A stretch of DNA of 8,137 bases. It comes from a virus. Lineage: Duplodnaviria > Heunggongvirae > Uroviricota > Caudoviricetes. A model generated the notes under the pieces. It was not told where the DNA came from. It searched no databases and was given only the letters and a program-made list of their open reading frames with translations. Location of the stretch: the IMG/VR virus record IMGVR_UViG_2690316233_000001; one strand, given 5' to 3'. The position numbers and the translations under genes were made by a program. Of this stretch, positions 1-7,896 are shown one piece after another. Every line of letters begins with the position of its first letter. Position 1 is the first letter of the stretch.

Positions 1-912
<912 letters not shown>

Positions 913-916
<4 letters not shown>

Positions 917-1698
917 GCTGCCACCTTCTGCTCTGCGGCTTTCTGTTTCAGGAATCCAAGAGCTTTCACTGCTTCGGCCTGTGTCAGTTCTGACGATGCG
1001 CGAATGTCGCGGCGAAATATCTGGGAACAGAGCGGCAATAAGTCGTCATCCCATGTTTTATCCAGGGCGATCAGCAGAGTGTTAATCTCCTGCATGGTTT
1101 CATCGTTTACCGGAGTGATGTCGCGTTCCGGCTGGCGTTCTGCAGTGTATGCGGTATTTTCGACAATGCGCTCGGCTTCATCCTTGTCATAGATACCAGC
1201 AAATCCGAAGGCCAGGCGGGCACACTGAATCATGGCTTTATGCCGTAACATCCGTTTGGGATGCGACTGCCACGGCCCCGTGATTTCTCTGCCTTCGCGG
1301 GTTTTGAATGGTTCGCGGCGGCATTCATCCATCCATTCGGTAACGCAGATCGGATGATTACGGTCCTTGCGGTAAATACGGCATGTGCAGGATTCGTTGT
1401 CCTGTTCAAAGTCCATGCCATCAAACTGCTGGTTTTCATTGATGATGCGGGACCAGCCATCAACGCCCACTACCGGAACGATGCCATTCTGCTTATCAGG
1501 AAAGGCGTAAATTTCTTTCGTCCACGGATTAAGGCCGTACTGGTTGGCAACGATCAGTAATGCGATGAACTGCGCATCGCTGGCATCACCTTTAAATGCC
1601 GTCTGGCGAAGAGTGGTGATCAGTTCCTGTGGGTCGACAGAATCCATGCCGACACGTTCAGCCAGCTTCCCAGCCAGCGTTGCGAGTGCTGTACTCAT
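913..1698 (-). CDS. bet: Red beta single-strand annealing protein
   Basis: 261-aa ORF ([59 protein letters not shown]...) matches lambda Bet in sequence and length; position between gam and exo is conserved. Confidence 0.96.
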
Positions 1699-1703
1699 CC
1701 GTT

Positions 1704-2120
1704 TTATACCTCTGAATCAATATCAACCTGATGGTGAGCAATGGTTTCAACCATGTACCGGATGTGTTCTGCCATGCGCTCCTGAAACTCAACATCGTCA
1801 TCAAACGCACGGGTAATGGCTTTTTTGCTGGCCCCGTGGCGTTGCAAATGATCGATGCATAGCGATTCAAACAGGTGCTGGGGCAGGCCTTTTTCCATGT
1901 CGTCTGCCAGTTCTGCCTCTTTCTCTTCACGGGCGATCTGCTGGTAGTGACGCGCCCAGCTCTGAGCCTCAAGACGATCCTGAATGTAATAAGCGTTCAT
2001 GGCCGAACTCCTGAAATAGCTGTGAAAATATCGCCCGCGAAATGCCGGGCTGATTAGGAAAACAGGAAAGGGGGTTAGTGAATGCTTTTGCTTGATCTCA
2101 GTTTCAGTATTAATATCCAT
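1704..2120 (-). CDS. gam: Gam, RecBCD inhibitor (long 138-aa form; the internal Met at MNAYYIQ, nt 2000, would give the short form)
   Basis: 138-aa ORF ([55 protein letters not shown]...) matches lambda Gam; 5' end overlaps kil as in lambda. Confidence 0.94.
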
Positions 2121-2218
2121 TTTTTATAAGCGTCGACGGCCTCACGAAACATCTTTTCATCGCCAATAAAAGTGGCAATAGTGAATTTTGTCTGGATAGC
2201 CATAAGTTTTTTATCCAT
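2075..2218 (-). CDS. kil: Kil, host cell-division (FtsZ) inhibitor, 47 aa
   Basis: Internal Met of track ORF 2075..2344 gives [47 protein letters not shown], same length and position as lambda kil. The upstream part of the track ORF is cIII read out of frame, so the 47-aa form is the real gene. Confidence 0.8.
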
Positions 2219-2351
2219 TTTTGGGGACTCCTGGCTGATTAAGTATGTCGATAAGGCGTTTCCATCCGTCACGTAATTTACGGGTGATTCGTTCAAGTAA
2301 AGATTCGGAAGGGCAGCCAGCAACAGGCCACCCTGCAATGGCATATTGCAT
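2211..2351 (-). CDS. cIII: CIII, FtsH (HflB) protease inhibitor that stabilises CII; 46-aa variant
   Basis: Hand translation of the minus strand from the ATG at 2351 gives [46 protein letters not shown] then TAA. This matches lambda CIII through residue 46; lambda continues 8 more residues as I recall. Overlaps the kil start by 8 nt. Not in the ORF track, presumably because it is under the length cutoff. Confidence 0.8.
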   Translation of the reverse strand: MQYAIAGWPVAGCPSESLLERITRKLRDGWKRLIDILNQPGVPKNG

Positions 2352-2423
2352 GGTGTGCTCCTTATTTATACATAACGAAAAACGCCTCGAGTGAAGCGTA
2401 ATTGGTATGCGGTAACGCCGCGC

Positions 2424-2792
2424 TCAGGCGGCTTTGATAGTCATATCATCTGGATCAAATATTCCTGATGTATCGATATCGGTAATTCTTATTCCTTCGC
2501 TACCATCCATTGGAGGCCATCCTTCCTGACCATTTCCATCATTCCAGTCGAACTCACACACAACACCATATGCATTTAAGTCGCTTGAAATTGCTATAAG
2601 CAGAGCATGTTGCGCCAGCATGATTAATACAGCATTTAATACAGAGCCGTGTTTATTGAGTCGGTATTCAGAGTCTGACCAGAAATTATTAATCTGGTGA
2701 AGTTTTTCCTCTGTCATTACGTCATGGTCGATTTCAATTTCCATTGATGCTTTCCAGTCGCAATCAATGATGTATTTTTTGATGTTTGACAT
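2424..2792 (-). CDS. ea10: Ea10 (lambda early-left protein, putative ssDNA-binding protein)
   Basis: 122-aa ORF (MSNIKKYIIDCDWKASMEIEIDHDVMTEEKLHQINNFWSDSEYRLNKHGSV...) matches lambda Ea10 as I recall it, in the same position between cIII and ral. Confidence 0.85.
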   Translation of the reverse strand: MSNIKKYIIDCDWKASMEIEIDHDVMTEEKLHQINNFWSDSEYRLNKHGSVLNAVLIMLAQHALLIAISSDLNAYGVVCEFDWNDGNGQEGWPPMDGSEGIRITDIDTSGIFDPDDMTIKAA

Positions 2793-2801
2793 CTATTCAT
2801 A

Positions 2802-2828
2802 TCCTCATAGATAAAAAATCGCCCTCAC
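2802..2828 (-). terminator. Intrinsic-terminator-like hairpin (tL2-like) between ral and ea10
   Basis: Stem GCCCTC (2811-2816) / GAGGGC (2823-2828) with a 6-nt loop; on the minus strand the hairpin is followed by a U-run (plus-strand AAAAAA at 2803-2808). Confidence 0.5.
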
Positions 2829-2974
2829 ACTGGAGGGCAAAGAAGATTTCCAATAATCAGAACAAGTCGGCTCCTGTTTAGTTACGAGCGACATTGCTCC
2901 GTGTATTCACTCGTTGGAATGAATACACAGTGCAGTGTTTATTCTGTTATTTATGCCAAAAATAAAGGTCACTA

Positions 2975-3175
2975 TCAGGCAGCTTTGTTGTTCTGTTTAC
3001 CAAGTTCTCTGGCAATCATTGCCGTCGTTCGTATTGCCCATTTATCGACATATTTCCCATCTTCCATTACAGGAAACATTTCTTCAGGCTTAACCATGCA
3101 TTCCGATTGCAGCTTGCATCCATTGCATCGCTTGAATTGTCCACACCATTGATTTTTATCAATAGTCGTAGTCAT
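2975..3175 (-). CDS. ral: Ral, restriction-alleviation protein (modulates host EcoK type I R-M)
   Basis: 66-aa ORF MTTTIDKNQWCGQFKRCNGCKLQSECMVKPEEMFPVMEDGKYVDKWAIRTTAMIARELGKQNNKAA matches lambda Ral. Confidence 0.9.
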   Translation of the reverse strand: MTTTIDKNQWCGQFKRCNGCKLQSECMVKPEEMFPVMEDGKYVDKWAIRTTAMIARELGKQNNKAA

Positions 3176-3245
3176 ACGGATAGTCCTGGTATTGTTCCAT
3201 CACATCCTGAGGATGCTCTTCGAACTCTTCAAATTCTTCTTCCAT
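3159..3245 (-). CDS. orf28-like small ORF (28 aa, acidic) upstream of ral
   Basis: Hand translation from the ATG at 3245: MEEEFEEFEEHPQDVMEQYQDYPYDYDY then stop. Same position and length as lambda orf28; overlaps the ral start. Whether it is translated is unknown. Confidence 0.45.
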   Translation of the reverse strand: MEEEFEEFEEHPQDVMEQYQDYPYDYDY

Positions 3246-3445
3246 ATATCACCTCAAATAAGTTGTTTGCTGCGAAAGTAAATACGCTTAAGTTACCTGT
3301 TATTTATCCCACCAAGTTCCGTATCTATCTATCCAGTTACACCAATCATCGACACTCCATTTTGTTGTGTCGCATTTTTGCAACTGGCATGAATATCTAC
3401 CTTCTTTGTAAAGTCGGCGTTTGACTTTCTTGAGCATGGCTCACC

Positions 3446-3700
3446 TCAATCGTAATAAGCTGGAATTGATTTTCCGCGTTGCTTCTGGCAGCGAAGGCTT
3501 CCGAGTGATATTGCTTTTTCAGAAAGGCTTAAACGTTTTCTCGGGGCTTCCTGAACAGGTTCCTCACTGTCTGTGCCGAAGATCGAATCGATGATGTTGC
3601 ATATAGCATCACGCTCGATAGCCAGCTTTCTGCGCCGCTCATGACGGCGAGTTTTGGCATTTCCTGCAAATGTTGATTTCCCGTACACGATTACCGTCAT
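3446..3700 (-). CDS. N: N-family transcription antiterminator, P22 gene-24-type (arginine-rich motif at N-terminus)
   Basis: Track ORF 3446..3784; the internal Met at 3700 gives MTVIVYGKSTFAGNAKTRRHERRRKLAIERD..., which resembles the P22 gp24 N-terminus and arginine-rich motif as I recall it. A strong Shine-Dalgarno GAGGAA lies 6 nt upstream of this ATG. The C-terminus (...QKQRGKSIPAYYD) resembles the lambda N C-terminus (...GKSIPLI). The upstream 28 in-frame codons have no RBS and are probably not translated. Confidence 0.8.
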   Translation of the reverse strand: MTVIVYGKSTFAGNAKTRRHERRRKLAIERDAICNIIDSIFGTDSEEPVQEAPRKRLSLSEKAISLGSLRCQKQRGKSIPAYYD

Positions 3701-3819
3701 GATGTTTTCCTCATGTGAAATGGCTTTGGGGGTGATGTGCCAGATGCTGATCTTCTGGTTGCTGTCGTTGCAGCTGCAATTCACATCACCGCCAAATCCA
3801 TCTCGTTTGGTATCTGTTT

Positions 3820-3853
3820 GCGCTTTGTCAGCGCCCCATCGAAGTTAAAGAGC
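3820..3853 (-). promoter_or_regulatory. nutL site: boxA-like (3845-3853) and boxB hairpin (3820-3834), P22 type
   Basis: Minus strand reads GGCTCTTTAACTTCGATGGGGCGCTGACAAAGCGCAAAC. GCTCTTTAA fits the boxA consensus CGCTCTTTA with one mismatch; GCGCTGACAAAGCGC is a perfect 5-bp stem with a 5-nt loop and is the P22 nutL boxB sequence as I recall it. Lies between the presumed pL and the N start. Confidence 0.75.
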
Positions 3854-3859
3854 CTGCCA

Positions 3860-4010
3860 ATCTGTTCCGTTTGGCTGCCAGCATCCTGCTGACGGCGATA
3901 ATAATGAACTAATGGTTCGATATTATCAAGAACTGCAAGTACGAGATTTTGCAACTCTTTAATTTTATTAGATAAGTTTTTGATATGTAATGAAATTTAT
4001 TTTTGCAAAG
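3860..4010 (-). promoter_or_regulatory. pL promoter / OL operator region (exact -35/-10 not resolved)
   Basis: AT-rich region upstream of nutL and N. Contains TTGCAA hexamers (3948-3953 and about 4004-4009) and an ACTGCAAGTACGA motif (3932-3944) that also occurs in the cI-cro intergenic region. I could not find a -35/-10 pair with canonical spacing. Confidence 0.45.
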
Positions 4011-4120
4011 ATTGAAGATTGGTCTGTAGGGGAGAAAGGACTGTATTGCTGGCGTGTTAGTTCGTGGGTTAGCACATATGCGGATGTTAAATAGGGGAGG
4101 CGAACGTGAGGTAAAGAAAA

Positions 4121-4143
4121 CCCGGCGCAGAGGCCGGGTTTTT
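4121..4143. terminator. Bidirectional rho-independent terminator (tImm-like) between the repressor operon and pL
   Basis: Stem CCCGGC (4121-4126) / GCCGGG (4133-4138) with loop GCAGAG. Followed by TTTTT on the plus strand (4139-4143) and preceded by AAAA (4117-4120), which gives a U-tract on the minus strand, directly after the stop of the 258-aa gene at 4144. Confidence 0.7.
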
Positions 4144-4920
4144 CTAGGCTACCAGAGAGTCAATCCAAGAGTCTCTGGTATGGAATGGCAACACTCGTGC
4201 GGTATCATTAAATAGTAGTGATAGTTGCTGTAGCTCAGGTGTTAACCCATCGCTGTCAACTATTACAAATCTATTGTTTATGTCAGGAACGACCTGACTT
4301 AAGTCAACAATCTTCCCAACTGTTGAGTGGGCAGTATTCCATCCTTTACTGCTGGCAAGGCTTACCGTAAACCCGCGTTTTGGTGGTATTAGTCGAGACT
4401 CATTCCTTAGCGTTAACGGAACAGTAATGTTATGCCCACTAATACCTTTCACTTTTTCCTTTAAGGCTAGTCGCTTCCCAAGCCCTGCTGATTTTAAGTA
4501 ACTGATTACACATTTTTCGAACTTATCGTCTTTGACCTCAGCATACCAATCAGCAGTTTGGGCGGATGCAAGAATCCCACCACGAATAACATTTGCAGTT
4601 ACCTGTCCAACGGACGACTCATCTGCCCACGCAGATATCTCTCCAGAGTCATTTAATGAAATTCCTTGCGAAGCGAGTGATGACCTGATCAGATCAATTT
4701 TCTTTTTAGTCAGGTGGATGCCGCGTGATTCAATATTCATCAATGTATCGCAGTAGTCTGTAACCCTATACTGACCACTCATCTCTTGAACGAATACGCT
4801 TATCTGCTCACAATCATCGTAGTATGTGAAGGGACTAATAACGCGCAGCAACGTGTCGCTCATTGGGTGGCATTCAAACCCGAGCTTAGATATGACTGTT
4901 GAACACGTTACATTTCCCAT
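4144..4920 (-). CDS. Hypothetical protein, 258 aa; distal gene of a two-gene module downstream of cI; candidate exclusion/defence protein
   Basis: Long uninterrupted ORF (MGNVTCSTVISKLGFECHPMSDTLLRV...RDSWIDSLVA). Its start overlaps the 3' end of the upstream 180-aa ORF by 13 nt, suggesting translational coupling. No long hydrophobic segments, so probably soluble. I recognise no family. The start codon is uncertain: weak RBS, and Met20 at 4863 is an alternative. Confidence 0.65.
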   Translation of the reverse strand: MGNVTCSTVISKLGFECHPMSDTLLRVISPFTYYDDCEQISVFVQEMSGQYRVTDYCDTLMNIESRGIHLTKKKIDLIRSSLASQGISLNDSGEISAWADESSVGQVTANVIRGGILASAQTADWYAEVKDDKFEKCVISYLKSAGLGKRLALKEKVKGISGHNITVPLTLRNESRLIPPKRGFTVSLASSKGWNTAHSTVGKIVDLSQVVPDINNRFVIVDSDGLTPELQQLSLLFNDTARVLPFHTRDSWIDSLVA

Positions 4921-5450
4921 GATAGCTGACCTGATTTATCTTGATTCGGTAAAGGTGGGCTGCCTTCATATATGATATTAAGCGCCTCGCAAAAATAATT
5001 CCAGTAGCCAAAAAAATCATCTGGCTTGATGTTCGTTTCAAGCTTGAGTGCAATTTCTTCCCCAGCTGATTCGAAGTACATGTGATAGTGAGGACCTCGA
5101 GCCACCTCAACAAAATCTGGATGGTGCACTATAGATTTATTACGGTGTGACTTGTTATGCGCAGGGTACGGGTCAAGCGCGTAAATGCGCCTGTCATGAA
5201 GAAACATCACAAATGAAAGCTTCACTATATCCACCCCTTCAACGATAGGAGAACGCCAGTGAAGCATAAATCTTATGCCTGTGATTGGGTTGCCAATTTC
5301 ATCAAAAGCTTTGAGATCCAATTTAAACCAGATTGGGGTTCGTCCCTCACTTCCGGTCCACGAAACTCCGCTAAAAGTTACTTTTTTCAAGCGAGTAATA
5401 GCTTGGTCAACCTCTTTCTGGGTAGGCTTAAAGTCGCCTTTTTTAGCCAC
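4908..5450 (-). CDS. Hypothetical protein, 180 aa; proximal gene of the two-gene module downstream of cI; candidate exclusion/defence protein
   Basis: ORF (MAKKGDFKPTQKEVDQAITRLKK...IVHHPDFVEVARGPHYHMYFES...SGQLSWEM). The start codon at 5450 is GTG, with a GGTGA Shine-Dalgarno-like sequence about 9 nt upstream and an in-frame stop at 5460-5462 that bounds the N-terminus. Contains a histidine-rich stretch (HHPDF...HYHMYF). No long hydrophobic segments. I recognise no family. Confidence 0.6.
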   Translation of the reverse strand: MAKKGDFKPTQKEVDQAITRLKKVTFSGVSWTGSEGRTPIWFKLDLKAFDEIGNPITGIRFMLHWRSPIVEGVDIVKLSFVMFLHDRRIYALDPYPAHNKSHRNKSIVHHPDFVEVARGPHYHMYFESAGEEIALKLETNIKPDDFFGYWNYFCEALNIIYEGSPPLPNQDKSGQLSWEM

Positions 5451-5547: not shown

Positions 5548-6255
5548 TCACGAACTTTTAATCCATTCCCTTGCCTCGATGTCATCTAGGTGGCGAGATT
5601 GCTTCAAAATACCAGCCACATACTCCACCTTTGCTACTTGATGATAAGGCAACGTTATTGGCCTGTGGTCTTGATTGATGCTTGTAAATTGGTATTCTCC
5701 GTCTCTGTCATAGCCAAGAACCTTGATCATGTTGTGCCCTTCAATGGTTCTGACAAACACTTCATCACCTGGGAATACTTTGGTGTTAGGCTCAATGAGT
5801 ACATATTCTCCTGATTTAATTCTGGGCCACATGCTGTCTCCTTTTACACGAAGACCAAAGGCATCTGGATCATCGCTATAAATCTTGAGCCACCCATCGC
5901 GCTCTTCGGTCATCTCGATGGCACCATCAACACCAAGAATTGCCTCACCAACCACGCGCACTAACCCTTTTTTTAATTTGCCAACAATTGAAAAAGTATC
6001 TTCATCATTCGCTCCATTTAACGAAGTGCCGTGCTGAAGCCAAACAACATCAACGTTTAGAAATTTCGCAAGCGCATTCATTTTTTCCTGGCGTGGTAAA
6101 GACTCAGCATTAAACCATTTGCTAACGCCTTTGGACGAAAGAGAAAGGGCACGGGCTATGGCCATTCCCCTACCATGTTCATCAAGACCAGCTTCTTTAC
6201 AGGCTTGCGCTAGCCGCTGGGCGAATTCTTTGCGCACTTTTTCATTCTGAACCAT
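5548..6255 (-). CDS. cI: CI-type prophage repressor (N-terminal HTH, C-terminal S24/LexA-like autopeptidase domain)
   Basis: 235-aa ORF with a helix-turn-helix region (RLAQACKEAGLDEHGRGMAIARALSLSSKGVSKWFNAE) and a C-terminal VKGDSMWP...IKVLG region typical of LexA/CI self-cleaving repressors (Ser in GDSM, Lys downstream). Divergently oriented to cro. Not the lambda, 434 or P22 c2 sequence. Confidence 0.9.
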   Translation of the reverse strand: MVQNEKVRKEFAQRLAQACKEAGLDEHGRGMAIARALSLSSKGVSKWFNAESLPRQEKMNALAKFLNVDVVWLQHGTSLNGANDEDTFSIVGKLKKGLVRVVGEAILGVDGAIEMTEERDGWLKIYSDDPDAFGLRVKGDSMWPRIKSGEYVLIEPNTKVFPGDEVFVRTIEGHNMIKVLGYDRDGEYQFTSINQDHRPITLPYHQVAKVEYVAGILKQSRHLDDIEAREWIKSS

Positions 6256-6333: not shown

Positions 6334-6561
6334 ATGCAAAATCTTGATGAGCCGATTAAAGGTGTCGGCATCCCTGAAGTTGCGAAGGCTTGTGGAGTTA
6401 GCGAAAGGGCTGTCTATAAGTGGCTCAAAAACGGCTTCCTCCCTAAGACTGAGTTTTTTGGGAAAACTAAATACGCATCAAAAATCGAAGAGATTTCTGG
6501 TGGCAAATATCAAGCAAGCGAAATGCTTGAAATAAGCAAAAAGAACCTTCTGGCTGCATAA
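6334..6561 (+). CDS. cro: Cro-like repressor (HTH), 75 aa
   Basis: Track ORF 6301..6561; the ATG at 6301 lies inside the pR -10, so the likely start is the ATG at 6334, preceded by AAAAAGGG. Product MQNLDEPIKGVGIPEVAKACGVSERAVYKWLKNGFLPK... has a clear HTH; it is the first gene rightward of the repressor gene. Confidence 0.8.
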   Translation: MQNLDEPIKGVGIPEVAKACGVSERAVYKWLKNGFLPKTEFFGKTKYASKIEEISGGKYQASEMLEISKKNLLAA

Positions 6562-6568
6562 GTAACAC

Positions 6569-6603
6569 CGCTCTTTATCAATCTGCACCGCCGACAACGC
6601 GGT
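6569..6603 (+). promoter_or_regulatory. nutR site: boxA CGCTCTTTA (6569-6577) and boxB ACCGCCGACAACGCGGT (6587-6603), P22 type
   Basis: Perfect boxA consensus followed at lambdoid spacing by a hairpin (stem CCGCC/GCGG-like, loop GACAA) that matches the P22 nutR boxB as I recall it. Lies immediately after the cro stop. Same specificity class as nutL and the N protein in this window. Confidence 0.75.
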
Positions 6604-6614
6604 AACTAATTAAG

Positions 6615-6648
6615 CACTCATCGAAAGATGAGTGTTAGTGATTATTTA
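6615..6648 (+). terminator. tR1-like intrinsic terminator between nutR and cII
   Basis: Perfect 8-bp stem CACTCATC (6615-6622) / GATGAGTG (6627-6634) with GAAA tetraloop, followed by the T-rich tract TTAGTGATTATTT. Confidence 0.6.
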
Positions 6649-6667: not shown

Positions 6668-6964
6668 ATGACACAAACAAGTTACAGCAAACTATCACAG
6701 CGCGACGTTGATCGCGCAGAAACAGATTTACTCATCAACCTGTCAACGCTTACCCAGCGCGGTCTGGCAAAGATGATTGGCTGTCATGAATCGAAGATAA
6801 GCAGAACAGACTGGAGGTTTATTGCTTCGGTCTTGTGTGCTTTCGGAATGGCATCAGACATCAGTCCGATTAGTAGGGCTTTTAAGTATGCGCTTGATGA
6901 AATCACAAAGAAAAAACGCCCGGCGGCAACCGAGCGTTCTGAACAAATCCAGATGGAATTCTGA
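6668..6964 (+). CDS. cII: CII-type lysogeny establishment activator (chimeric: divergent N-terminal/HTH part, lambda-identical C-terminus)
   Basis: 98-aa ORF MTQTSYSKLSQRDVDRAETDLLINLSTLTQRGLAKMIGCHESKISR... ending ...KKRPAATERSEQIQMEF, which is the lambda CII C-terminus as I recall it. HTH in the middle; located between cro/tR1 and O. Confidence 0.85.
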   Translation: MTQTSYSKLSQRDVDRAETDLLINLSTLTQRGLAKMIGCHESKISRTDWRFIASVLCAFGMASDISPISRAFKYALDEITKKKRPAATERSEQIQMEF

Positions 6965-6996: not shown

Positions 6997-7896
6997 ATGA
7001 CAAATACAGCAAAAATACTCAACTTCGGCAGAGGTAACTTTGCCGGACAGGAGCGTAATGTGGCAGATCTCGATGATGGTTACGCCAGACTATCAAATAT
7101 GCTGCTTGAGGCTTATTCGGGCGCAGATCTGACCAAGCGACAGTTTAAAGTGCTGCTTGCCATTCTGCGTAAAACCTATGGGTGGAATAAACCAATGGAC
7201 AGAATCACCGATTCTCAACTTAGCGAGATTACAAAGTTACCTGTCAAACGGTGCAATGAAGCCAAGTTAGAACTCGTCAGAATGAATATTATCAAGCAGC
7301 AAGGCGGCATGTTTGGACCAAACAAAAACATCTCAGAATGGTGTATCCCTCAAAACGAGGGAAAATCCCCTAAAACGAGGGATAAAACATCCCTCAAATT
7401 GGGGGATTGCTATCCCTCAAAACAGGGGAACACAAAAGACACTATTACAAAAGAAAAAAGAAAAGATTATTCGTCAGAGAATTCTGGCGAATCCTCTAAC
7501 CAACCAGAAAACGATCTTCCTGTGGAGAAACCAGATGCTGCAATTCAGCGCGGCAGCAAGTGGGGGACAGCAGAAGACCTGACCGCCGCAGAGTGGATGT
7601 TTGACATGGTGAAGACTATCGCACCATCAGCCAGAAAACCGAATTTTGCTGGGTGGGCTAACGATATCCGCCTGATGCGTGAACGTGACGGACGCAACCA
7701 TCGCGACATGTGTGTACTGTTCCGCTGGGCATGCCAGGACAACTTCTGGTCCGGTAACGTGCTTAGCCCGGCCAAACTCCGCGACAAGTGGACCCAGCTC
7801 GAAATCAACCGTAACAAGCAACAGGCAGTCGTGACAGCCAGCAAACCAAAACTGGACCTGACAAACACAGACTGGATTTACGGGGTGGATCTATGA
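6997..7896 (+). CDS. O: Replication initiator O (binds ori iterons)
   Basis: 299-aa ORF (MTNTAKILNFGRGNFAGQERNVADLDDGYARLSNMLLEAYSG...TDWIYGVDL) matches lambda O with a few substitutions; contains ori internally; stop overlaps the P start. Confidence 0.96.
   Translation: MTNTAKILNFGRGNFAGQERNVADLDDGYARLSNMLLEAYSGADLTKRQFKVLLAILRKTYGWNKPMDRITDSQLSEITKLPVKRCNEAKLELVRMNIIKQQGGMFGPNKNISEWCIPQNEGKSPKTRDKTSLKLGDCYPSKQGNTKDTITKEKRKDYSSENSGESSNQPENDLPVEKPDAAIQRGSKWGTAEDLTAAEWMFDMVKTIAPSARKPNFAGWANDIRLMRERDGRNHRDMCVLFRWACQDNFWSGNVLSPAKLRDKWTQLEINRNKQQAVVTASKPKLDLTNTDWIYGVDL
7344..7475. repeat. ori-lambda-type origin: four direct iterons (about 18-19 bp each, ATCCCTCAAAACGAGGGA-like) followed by an AT-rich region
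   Basis: Seen directly: TATCCCTCAAAACGAGGGAAA / AATCCCCTAAAACGAGGGATA / CATCCCTCAAATTGGGGGATT / TATCCCTCAAAACAGGGGAAC, then ACAAAAGACACTATTACAAAAGAAAAAAGAAAAGATTAT. Located in the middle of the O gene, as in lambda. Confidence 0.88.

Follow-up and report, generated by a model that had tools for sequence, protein, structure and literature searches.

Which N/nut specificity does the early left operon of this prophage carry, from which parts has its antitermination module been assembled, and is the N protein encoded here likely to work? The window, which means the whole stretch of 8,137 nucleotides analysed, comes from an E. coli lambdoid prophage and represents its early region. It is identical to the whole of contig CXZV01000069.1 (E. 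coli assembly GCA_001283825.1), and this contig of 8.1 kb covers the prophage early region only. An earlier interpretation made from the letters alone (the sequence-only reading) had described the recombination block from exo to orf28 as near-identical to lambda. This is confirmed by an identity to lambda of 98.0% over positions 82–3270, and by Ral and orf28 proteins that are identical to those of lambda. The pL operon lies on the minus strand, in the order N, a 45-amino acid ORF, orf28, ral, ea10/DUF2528, cIII/kil, gam, bet and exo. The features of the window around N and up to the cro side are:

2975–3175, minus strand: ral, protein identical to lambda Ral.
3159–3245, minus strand: orf28, protein identical to lambda orf28.
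3300–3437, minus strand: gene for a 45-amino acid protein of the DUF5484/T-even gp55.4 family (Pfam, phrog_1871, called gene in assemblies).
3446–3700, minus strand: N antiterminator gene, deletion allele, 84 amino acids, PF25694, with a P22-type arginine-rich motif (ARM).
3485–3492: deletion junction, 8-bp microhomology CTTCTGGC.
3701–3715, minus strand: ribosome-binding region of N, CATGAGGAAAACATC directly 5′ of the ATG.
3718–3804, minus strand: long leader hairpin (predicted fold) in the interval from nutL to the N ribosome-binding region.
3820–3853, minus strand: nutL, with boxA GCTCTTTAAC at 3844–3853 and boxB GCGCTGACAAAGCGC at 3820–3834.
3901–3929, minus strand: candidate pL promoter (TTGATA, 17 nt, CATTAT), a consensus match only.
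4144–5450, minus strand: two-gene cassette.
5548–6255, minus strand: cI-like S24 repressor.
6334–6561: cro, followed by nutR, cII, O and the start of P.
6569–6602, plus strand: nutR, with boxA CGCTCTTTATC and boxB CCGCCGACAACGCGG at 6588–6602, just past the cro stop.

The N reading frame opens at the ATG at position 3700 (MTVIVYGK...), as annotated in relatives, and its stop codon occupies 3446–3448. The protein is deposited as GenBank CTT18497.1 ('putative regulatory protein N'). It matches Pfam PF25694 (N_peptide) over residues 1–78 with 92.3 bits (cut-off 27.9) and phrog_271 ('anti-termination protein N-like') with an E-value of 4e-27; none of the NCBIfam models matched N. Residues 13–31 (NAKTRRHERRRKLAIERDA) are identical in 18 of 19 positions to the P22 N peptide NAKTRRHERRRKLAIERDT in PDB entry 1A4T, so that the arginine-rich N-terminus had rightly been called P22 gp24-like. 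The P22-type ARM and N-terminal module (amino acids 1–73) are joined straight to an 11-amino acid tail, QRGKSIPAYYD. The ribosome-binding region is kept in 1H12, Stx2_EH1965 and P22. A longer ORF of 112 amino acids with a GTG start (3446–3784) was rejected as the N frame, because relatives start at MTV and because its upstream part overlaps the conserved leader hairpin. Plus-strand ORFs at 3107–3424, 3654–3848 and 3737–3892 overlap N, ral or the leader and were not treated as genes, and a minus-strand ORF at 3781–3954 was considered and is without a family match.

Upstream of the ribosome-binding region, the N leader RNA (fold energy −76.9 kcal/mol, z = −4.5) is predicted to form a hairpin that is long and imperfect. 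The 12 outer pairs of the stem are invariant in P22, 1H12 and an Stx2a phage, and the inner part differs in P22. No covariation or compensatory changes were found among the four sequences compared, which are too similar to provide such support. The predicted structure appears to resemble the leader hairpin of lambda N, which is RNase III-sensitive.

What sets the window apart from its closest relatives is the length of N. Near-identical prophages encode an N protein of 113 amino acids (e.g. WP_001504518.1, MB06102; NCBI 'transcriptional antitermination N peptide'), as opposed to 84 amino acids in the window. In MB06102, this 113-codon allele occupies NZ_CM129889 1786616–1786957. Relative to every close relative, N of the window displays an in-frame deletion of 87 bp, by which 29 codons (AEEVERKQNRIYYRKPRSEMGVTCSGRQK) located between two copies of CTTCTGGC have been lost. 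Over window positions 3100–4200, an identity of 99.6–99.9% is reached by 13 or more complete E. coli genomes, which have 87 extra bases, and alignment with strain MB06102 puts these bases between positions 3482 and 3492. The DNA flanking the deletion is 99.3–99.96% identical in the prophages with the 113-amino acid N, which agree with the window in their nut sites, in gene order and in the presence of the DUF5484 gene.

The 84-amino acid N falls into a cluster of 283 members, where the 13 other members listed measure 111–113 amino acids, save one partial sequence of 63; a similar in-frame loss is found in none of the 15 cluster members listed. Neither is there a comparable in-frame loss among the 120 listed cluster representatives of the N family (344 hits in total). 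These representatives comprise either 102 amino acids with a P22-type tail, or 109–113 amino acids with the core NRIYY..KP..EMGVTC.GRQK, and the few shorter proteins among them are frameshifted or partial. The core is conserved across E. coli, Salmonella, Cronobacter and Yokenella. A full-length relative aligns with lambda N in PDB entry 6GOV (chain N) with an E-value of 5e-9, and the match is strongest over the C-terminal core. Projected onto lambda N, the deletion corresponds to residues 71–98, i.e. most of the polymerase-binding domain (73–107). The equivalent of the last nine lambda residues is spared, and only the last 11 residues of the C-terminus remain. N of the window therefore has neither a lambda/phi21-type core nor a P22-type tail; since the core has been deleted, it is a member of the family by descent, as a deletion allele.

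The specificity of the module can be read from the nut sites. Both boxB 15-mers (GCGCTGACAAAGCGC and CCGCCGACAACGCGG) are identical to the boxBs within nutL and nutR as annotated in the P22 reference genome, in agreement with the sequence-only reading, and the nutL boxB is also the 15-mer RNA of PDB entry 1A4T. The boxA elements and the spacing are nearly identical to P22 as well. A search for the combined boxA and boxB pattern returned two matches in the window, exactly nutL and nutR, with 0.00 expected from shuffles. Folding of the boxB RNAs, which had been proposed as a check, yields a hairpin in both cases: in nutL boxB, a stem of 5 bp carries the pentaloop GACAA (−7.1 kcal/mol), and nutR boxB forms a hairpin whose loop is closed by a C·C mismatch, just as it is in P22. 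A scan of the whole window against Rfam gave no nut or boxB match. Membership in the lambda or phi21 specificity class is contradicted by the fact that the two boxA–boxB sites are the only ones and that both contain a P22-type boxB; the control loci carry lambda-type (GCCCTGAARAAGGGC) and phi21-type boxBs at the equivalent positions. The N-terminal module of the window N is identical to lambda N in 14 of 52 positions and to phi21 N in 26 of 75.

In every locus compared, ARM type and boxB type co-vary without exception. P22-type ARM and P22-type boxBs occur together in seven loci (the window, MB06102, 1H12, WP5-S18-ESBL-07, Stx2_EH1965, P22 and L), of which WP5-S18-ESBL-07 is the E. coli strain that carries the other 1H12-like prophage. 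Phage phi458 combines a lambda ARM with lambda boxBs, and DE3 combines a phi21 ARM with phi21 boxBs. The proposal that N and nut specificity vary as a unit is thus upheld in all loci compared, and the covariation defines this unit as nutL, N codons 1 to approximately 73, and nutR. The C-terminal parts of N appear to assort independently of it. These comparisons support an N/nut module of P22 specificity within a lambda-type pL operon, and from them we infer the RNA-binding specificity and the Nus dependence of the window N. It is classical knowledge that N and nut vary together among lambda, 21 and P22 (the work of Franklin in 1985 and of Lazinski et al. in 1989).

On the plus strand at 6613–6636, 11 nt past the nutR boxB and before cII, a perfect stem of 10 bp is capped by a GAAA tetraloop (GCACTCATC GAAA GATGAGTGT), with a weakly T-rich tail behind it. 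This hairpin could be an equivalent of the tR1 terminator or a processing site.

Comparison with named systems reveals a mosaic. Amino acids 1–72 of the window N are identical in 69 of 72 positions (96%) to N of Escherichia phage 1H12, as found in related prophages too, and in 51 of 70 positions (73%) to P22 gp24, which occupies the same position as the first pL gene. Phage 1H12 shares nut sites, immunity region and lambda-type recombination genes with the window, but has a P22-type N C-terminus, an adjacent sieB and a different gene between N and cI. In P22, the C-terminus of gp24 (LPGVALYAAGHRKSKQITAR) is unrelated to that of the window N, sieB/esc is found beside gene 24, and the recombination genes are erf/abc rather than exo/bet/gam. 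The second part of the mosaic is displayed by the full-length relatives, where residues 65–113 match phi21 N in 37 of 45 positions, phi458 N in 29 of 39, lambda N in 21 of 35 and phage L N in 26 of 49, and are unrelated to P22 gp24. The closest core is hence that of phage 21 N (lambda imm21/DE3; ASLGSLRCKKAEEVERKQNRIYYSKPRSEMGVTCVGRQK), with 82% identity, although the ARM and the boxB hairpins of phage 21 differ from the window (phi21 specificity). Lambda N (6GOV chain N) has the homologous C-terminal polymerase-binding core of the full-length relatives, the GKSIP motif and the same operon context, but a lambda ARM and boxBs with GAARA loops. The third part is the N tail (QKQRGKSIPAYYD), which is identical to the tail of gp24 from Salmonella phages L and ST64T; over window positions 3440–3487, DNA identity to phage L amounts to 94%. 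The phage L/ST64T protein also shows the P22-type ARM and boxBs, whereas the middle of its core is divergent (RDVNPLGNKIHAV), the DUF5484 gene is missing, and the phage is a P22-like podovirus.

From the letters alone, the C-terminus of N had been called lambda-like and the protein possibly chimeric. The chimera and the ending ...GKSIPAYYD stand, and the suggested alignment to lambda, P22 and phage 21 proteins does identify the N-terminal module as P22-type; the C-terminal core of the relatives, on the other hand, is nearest to phage 21. A single junction between orf28 and N is not borne out. There are at least three junctions, located at 3270/3271, at ~3483 within N (codon 73) and at ~3902. 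Lambda-type DNA stops at 3270, 25 bp upstream of orf28. The segment from 3271 to ~3482 comprises the DUF5484 gene and the N tail, and the same unit follows a lambda-ARM N in phi458. Homology to 1H12-type prophages (92%), in which sieB and an N tail of P22 type are present instead, extends from 3483 to 4139, and homology to P22 (72%) from 3575 to 3902, where the −10 hexamer of the pL candidate lies. Within cII, lambda-type DNA begins again at 6903. In phi458 (3160–3635), the last residues of the lambda-type N (QKQRGKSIPGYYD) and the downstream DUF5484 gene are those of the window's module. Tail and DUF5484 gene therefore move together, independently of N specificity.

The left end of lambda DNA at 3270–3273 lies no more than 3 bp from the point at which, in lambda imm21/DE3, the imm21 substitution has its left edge; in that phage, N abuts orf28 without sieB. 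This shared edge suggests a recurrent exchange point just upstream of orf28.

The interval between orf28 and N had been considered an empty spacer of about 200 bp, too short for sieB. Its length is correct (200 bp, as compared to 679 bp in lambda), but it holds a gene. The 45-amino acid ORF starts 8 nt past the N stop, and a strong Shine-Dalgarno sequence (GAGGTG) is placed five bases 5′ of its ATG. The protein matches Pfam DUF5484 (PF17583) with 42.1 bits and an E-value of 7e-11 (cut-off 27) and phrog_1871 with an E-value of 6e-21; no match was found among NCBIfam models. Public assemblies have the exact 45-amino acid protein as a called gene in 277 index blocks, and wherever its location was read, it lies between N and ral. 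Using tblastn, copies with 44–51% identity were detected in ~890 phage records, mostly genomes of ~165–170 kb, including ORFs annotated as 55.4 in the records of T2, IME08 and SP18, and a copy with 98% identity follows the N gene of phage phi458. By these matches, the ORF is a member of the DUF5484/T-even gp55.4 family. We found no relevant literature on DUF5484 or gp55.4.

The DUF5484 gene sits in the slot that holds sieB in lambda and P22. The absence of a sieB-type gene, which had been proposed from the length of the interval, is corroborated by tblastn with lambda, P22 and 1H12 SieB as queries: no homologue was found in 3246–3445, and matches elsewhere in the window had E-values above 0.4 (positive control 1e-101). 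Phages L and ST64T likewise have no sieB between N and ral, as described for phage L (PMC8022706). In the window, a conserved small gene common to T-even phages thus fills the sieB slot downstream of N, and it might provide an alternative exclusion or host-takeover function.

Based on this dataset, we consider it highly probable that the locus is an N/nut module of P22 specificity with a mosaic N, which has lost its core here and is probably impaired. The arginine-rich motif of N would bind the GACAA-loop boxB hairpins of nutL and nutR in the pL and pR transcripts. In the intact relatives, N and host Nus factors at the adjacent boxA would then enable RNA polymerase to pass early terminators. 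The mosaic, whose parts are exchanged independently, consists of a P22-type specificity module (amino acids 1–73), always accompanied by P22-type boxBs, of a lambda/phi21-type polymerase-binding core, and of a phage-L-type tail that travels with the small DUF5484 gene located downstream, where sieB would otherwise lie. The polymerase-binding core, equivalent to lambda N 71–98, has been lost in this one strain through an in-frame deletion mediated by microhomology.

The consequences of such a loss may be judged from work on other N proteins. The complex of lambda N with RNA polymerase (PDB 6GOV) is summarised in a review (PMC7819879). When residues 73–107 are deleted from lambda N, only 7% of transcription reads through tR1 instead of 38%, and H-19B N proteins with C-terminal deletions show a clear defect at a second terminator located distally; lambda N deleted for 81–107 stays fully active at the nut-proximal tR1, and shorter deletions are active there too (PMC3526286). 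Given these deletion data and the lost core, we expect the 84-amino acid N to bind nut RNA still, and to be impaired for processive antitermination; we regard this as probable, with room for doubt. An impaired N would probably render the prophage attenuated or defective for lytic development.

Conversely, the 84-amino acid N may be a fully functional short antiterminator that no longer needs the core when the tail directly follows the specificity module, and the prophage may be normally inducible. This appears unlikely, albeit worth serious consideration. The deletion is exactly in frame and retains the tail, and the activity of the 81–107 deletion of lambda N at tR1 (PMC3526286) is compatible with it. 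Furthermore, gp24 of L and of P22 have the N-terminal 75 residues and the boxBs in common and completely different C-termini, and they are interchangeable (PMC8022706). P22-tail N proteins hence work without the core, and the requirement for the core is not universal. However, the segment lost here spans the equivalents of lambda N 73–80, and it is the difference between the 73–107 and the 81–107 deletion that accounts for a five-fold drop in read-through, while H-19B N with C-terminal deletions fails at distal terminators (PMC3526286). The strong conservation of the core, with no other in-frame loss among the 120 representatives listed, also speaks against a dispensable core.

A still more speculative reading, to which we give rather little credence, is that of a still-active 'mini-N' (with a dispensable core, or with local action only) and, separately from it, of a DUF5484 protein serving exclusion or host takeover. 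In a first form, the specificity module fused to the 11-residue tail may suffice for antitermination; if true, this would mean that N can do without the conserved lambda/phi21-type core. In a second form, the protein may block Rho only at nut-proximal terminators, without processive modification of RNA polymerase; this would describe an attenuated, semi-domesticated prophage.

We think it very improbable that the 87-bp deletion is an artefact of assembly or sequencing, with the 113-amino acid form as the true gene. The deletion allele comes from one sequenced strain, and thus from one sample only: the 84-amino acid sequence was found in two contigs, the NCBI contig and a contig in the Logan assembly of ERR134537, and both are assumed to derive from the same reads. 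Yet a different assembler produced the Logan contig, whose sequence is contained exactly in that of the window and has the identical junction. The event is in frame, and the repeat measures only 8 bp, far below the k-mer sizes of assemblers. Least tenable of all is the sequence-only reading as a whole, i.e. a P22/lambda chimera as an intact N, only one junction, placed in a 200-bp spacer without genes, and a simple loss of sieB: its P22-type ARM and boxBs, lambda-type flank and missing sieB are all real, but the spacer holds a conserved DUF5484 gene, the junctions number at least three, N is not intact compared with all relatives, and the C-terminal core of the relatives is nearer to phi21 than to lambda.

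Among 5426 complete E. coli genomes, 266 (~5%) contain the P22-type 5′ part of N together with nutL (window positions 3560–3860) at an identity of at least 95%, and close N homologues (88–89%) occur in Stx2a-converting phages. Lambdoid phages are known to fall into N/nut specificity classes, to inherit N and nut together, to have mosaic N C-termini and to vary in whether they carry sieB. The module as such is ordinary, since absence of sieB and interchangeable N C-termini have been published for L versus P22 (PMC8022706), and the question first posed for this locus carries little weight, the protein being already deposited as a putative N. The only new details are the strain-specific deletion in N and the DUF5484 gene. 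As a natural in-frame deletion of the core, the former offers a ready-made allele for separating the needs of local and of processive antitermination in a background of P22 specificity.

Further observations concern other parts of the window. The gene cIII (2211–2364, minus strand) encodes 46 amino acids in the window and in several relatives, as compared to 54 in lambda, and the lambda cIII thermoregulator (Rfam RF01804) was recognized at 2306–2364 with 88.5 bits. The only other Rfam match, to a snoRNA at 7337–7419, was below threshold and was rejected as a false positive; it stems from the iterons of ori within the O gene, which are repeated units similar to TCCCTCAAAACGAGGGA.

The cassette between pL and cI consists of two overlapping genes in the position of rexA/rexB of lambda:

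4144–4920, minus strand: gene for a 258-amino acid DUF1828 protein.
4908–5450, minus strand: gene for a 180-amino acid protein with a weak DUF6978 match.

The slot is filled by rexAB in lambda and by a different single gene in phage 1H12. The cassette genes match phrog_1960 and phrog_2017 strongly, and they match both halves of the PADLOC candidate defence system PDC-M24 weakly (B with an E-value of 6e-7, A with 1.5e-3). NCBIfam models gave no match for either of the two rex-position genes, and no relevant literature was found on DUF1828, DUF6978 or PDC-M24. The pair may represent a defence cassette that is expressed together with the repressor. Right after the DUF1828 gene, at 4117–4142, there is a hairpin resembling a bidirectional terminator (AAAACCCGGC...GCCGGGTTTT), and window positions 4096–4145 are 90% identical to the end of lambda rexB (lambda 35782–35831). 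Judging by this identity, the terminator was kept while the cargo genes were swapped.
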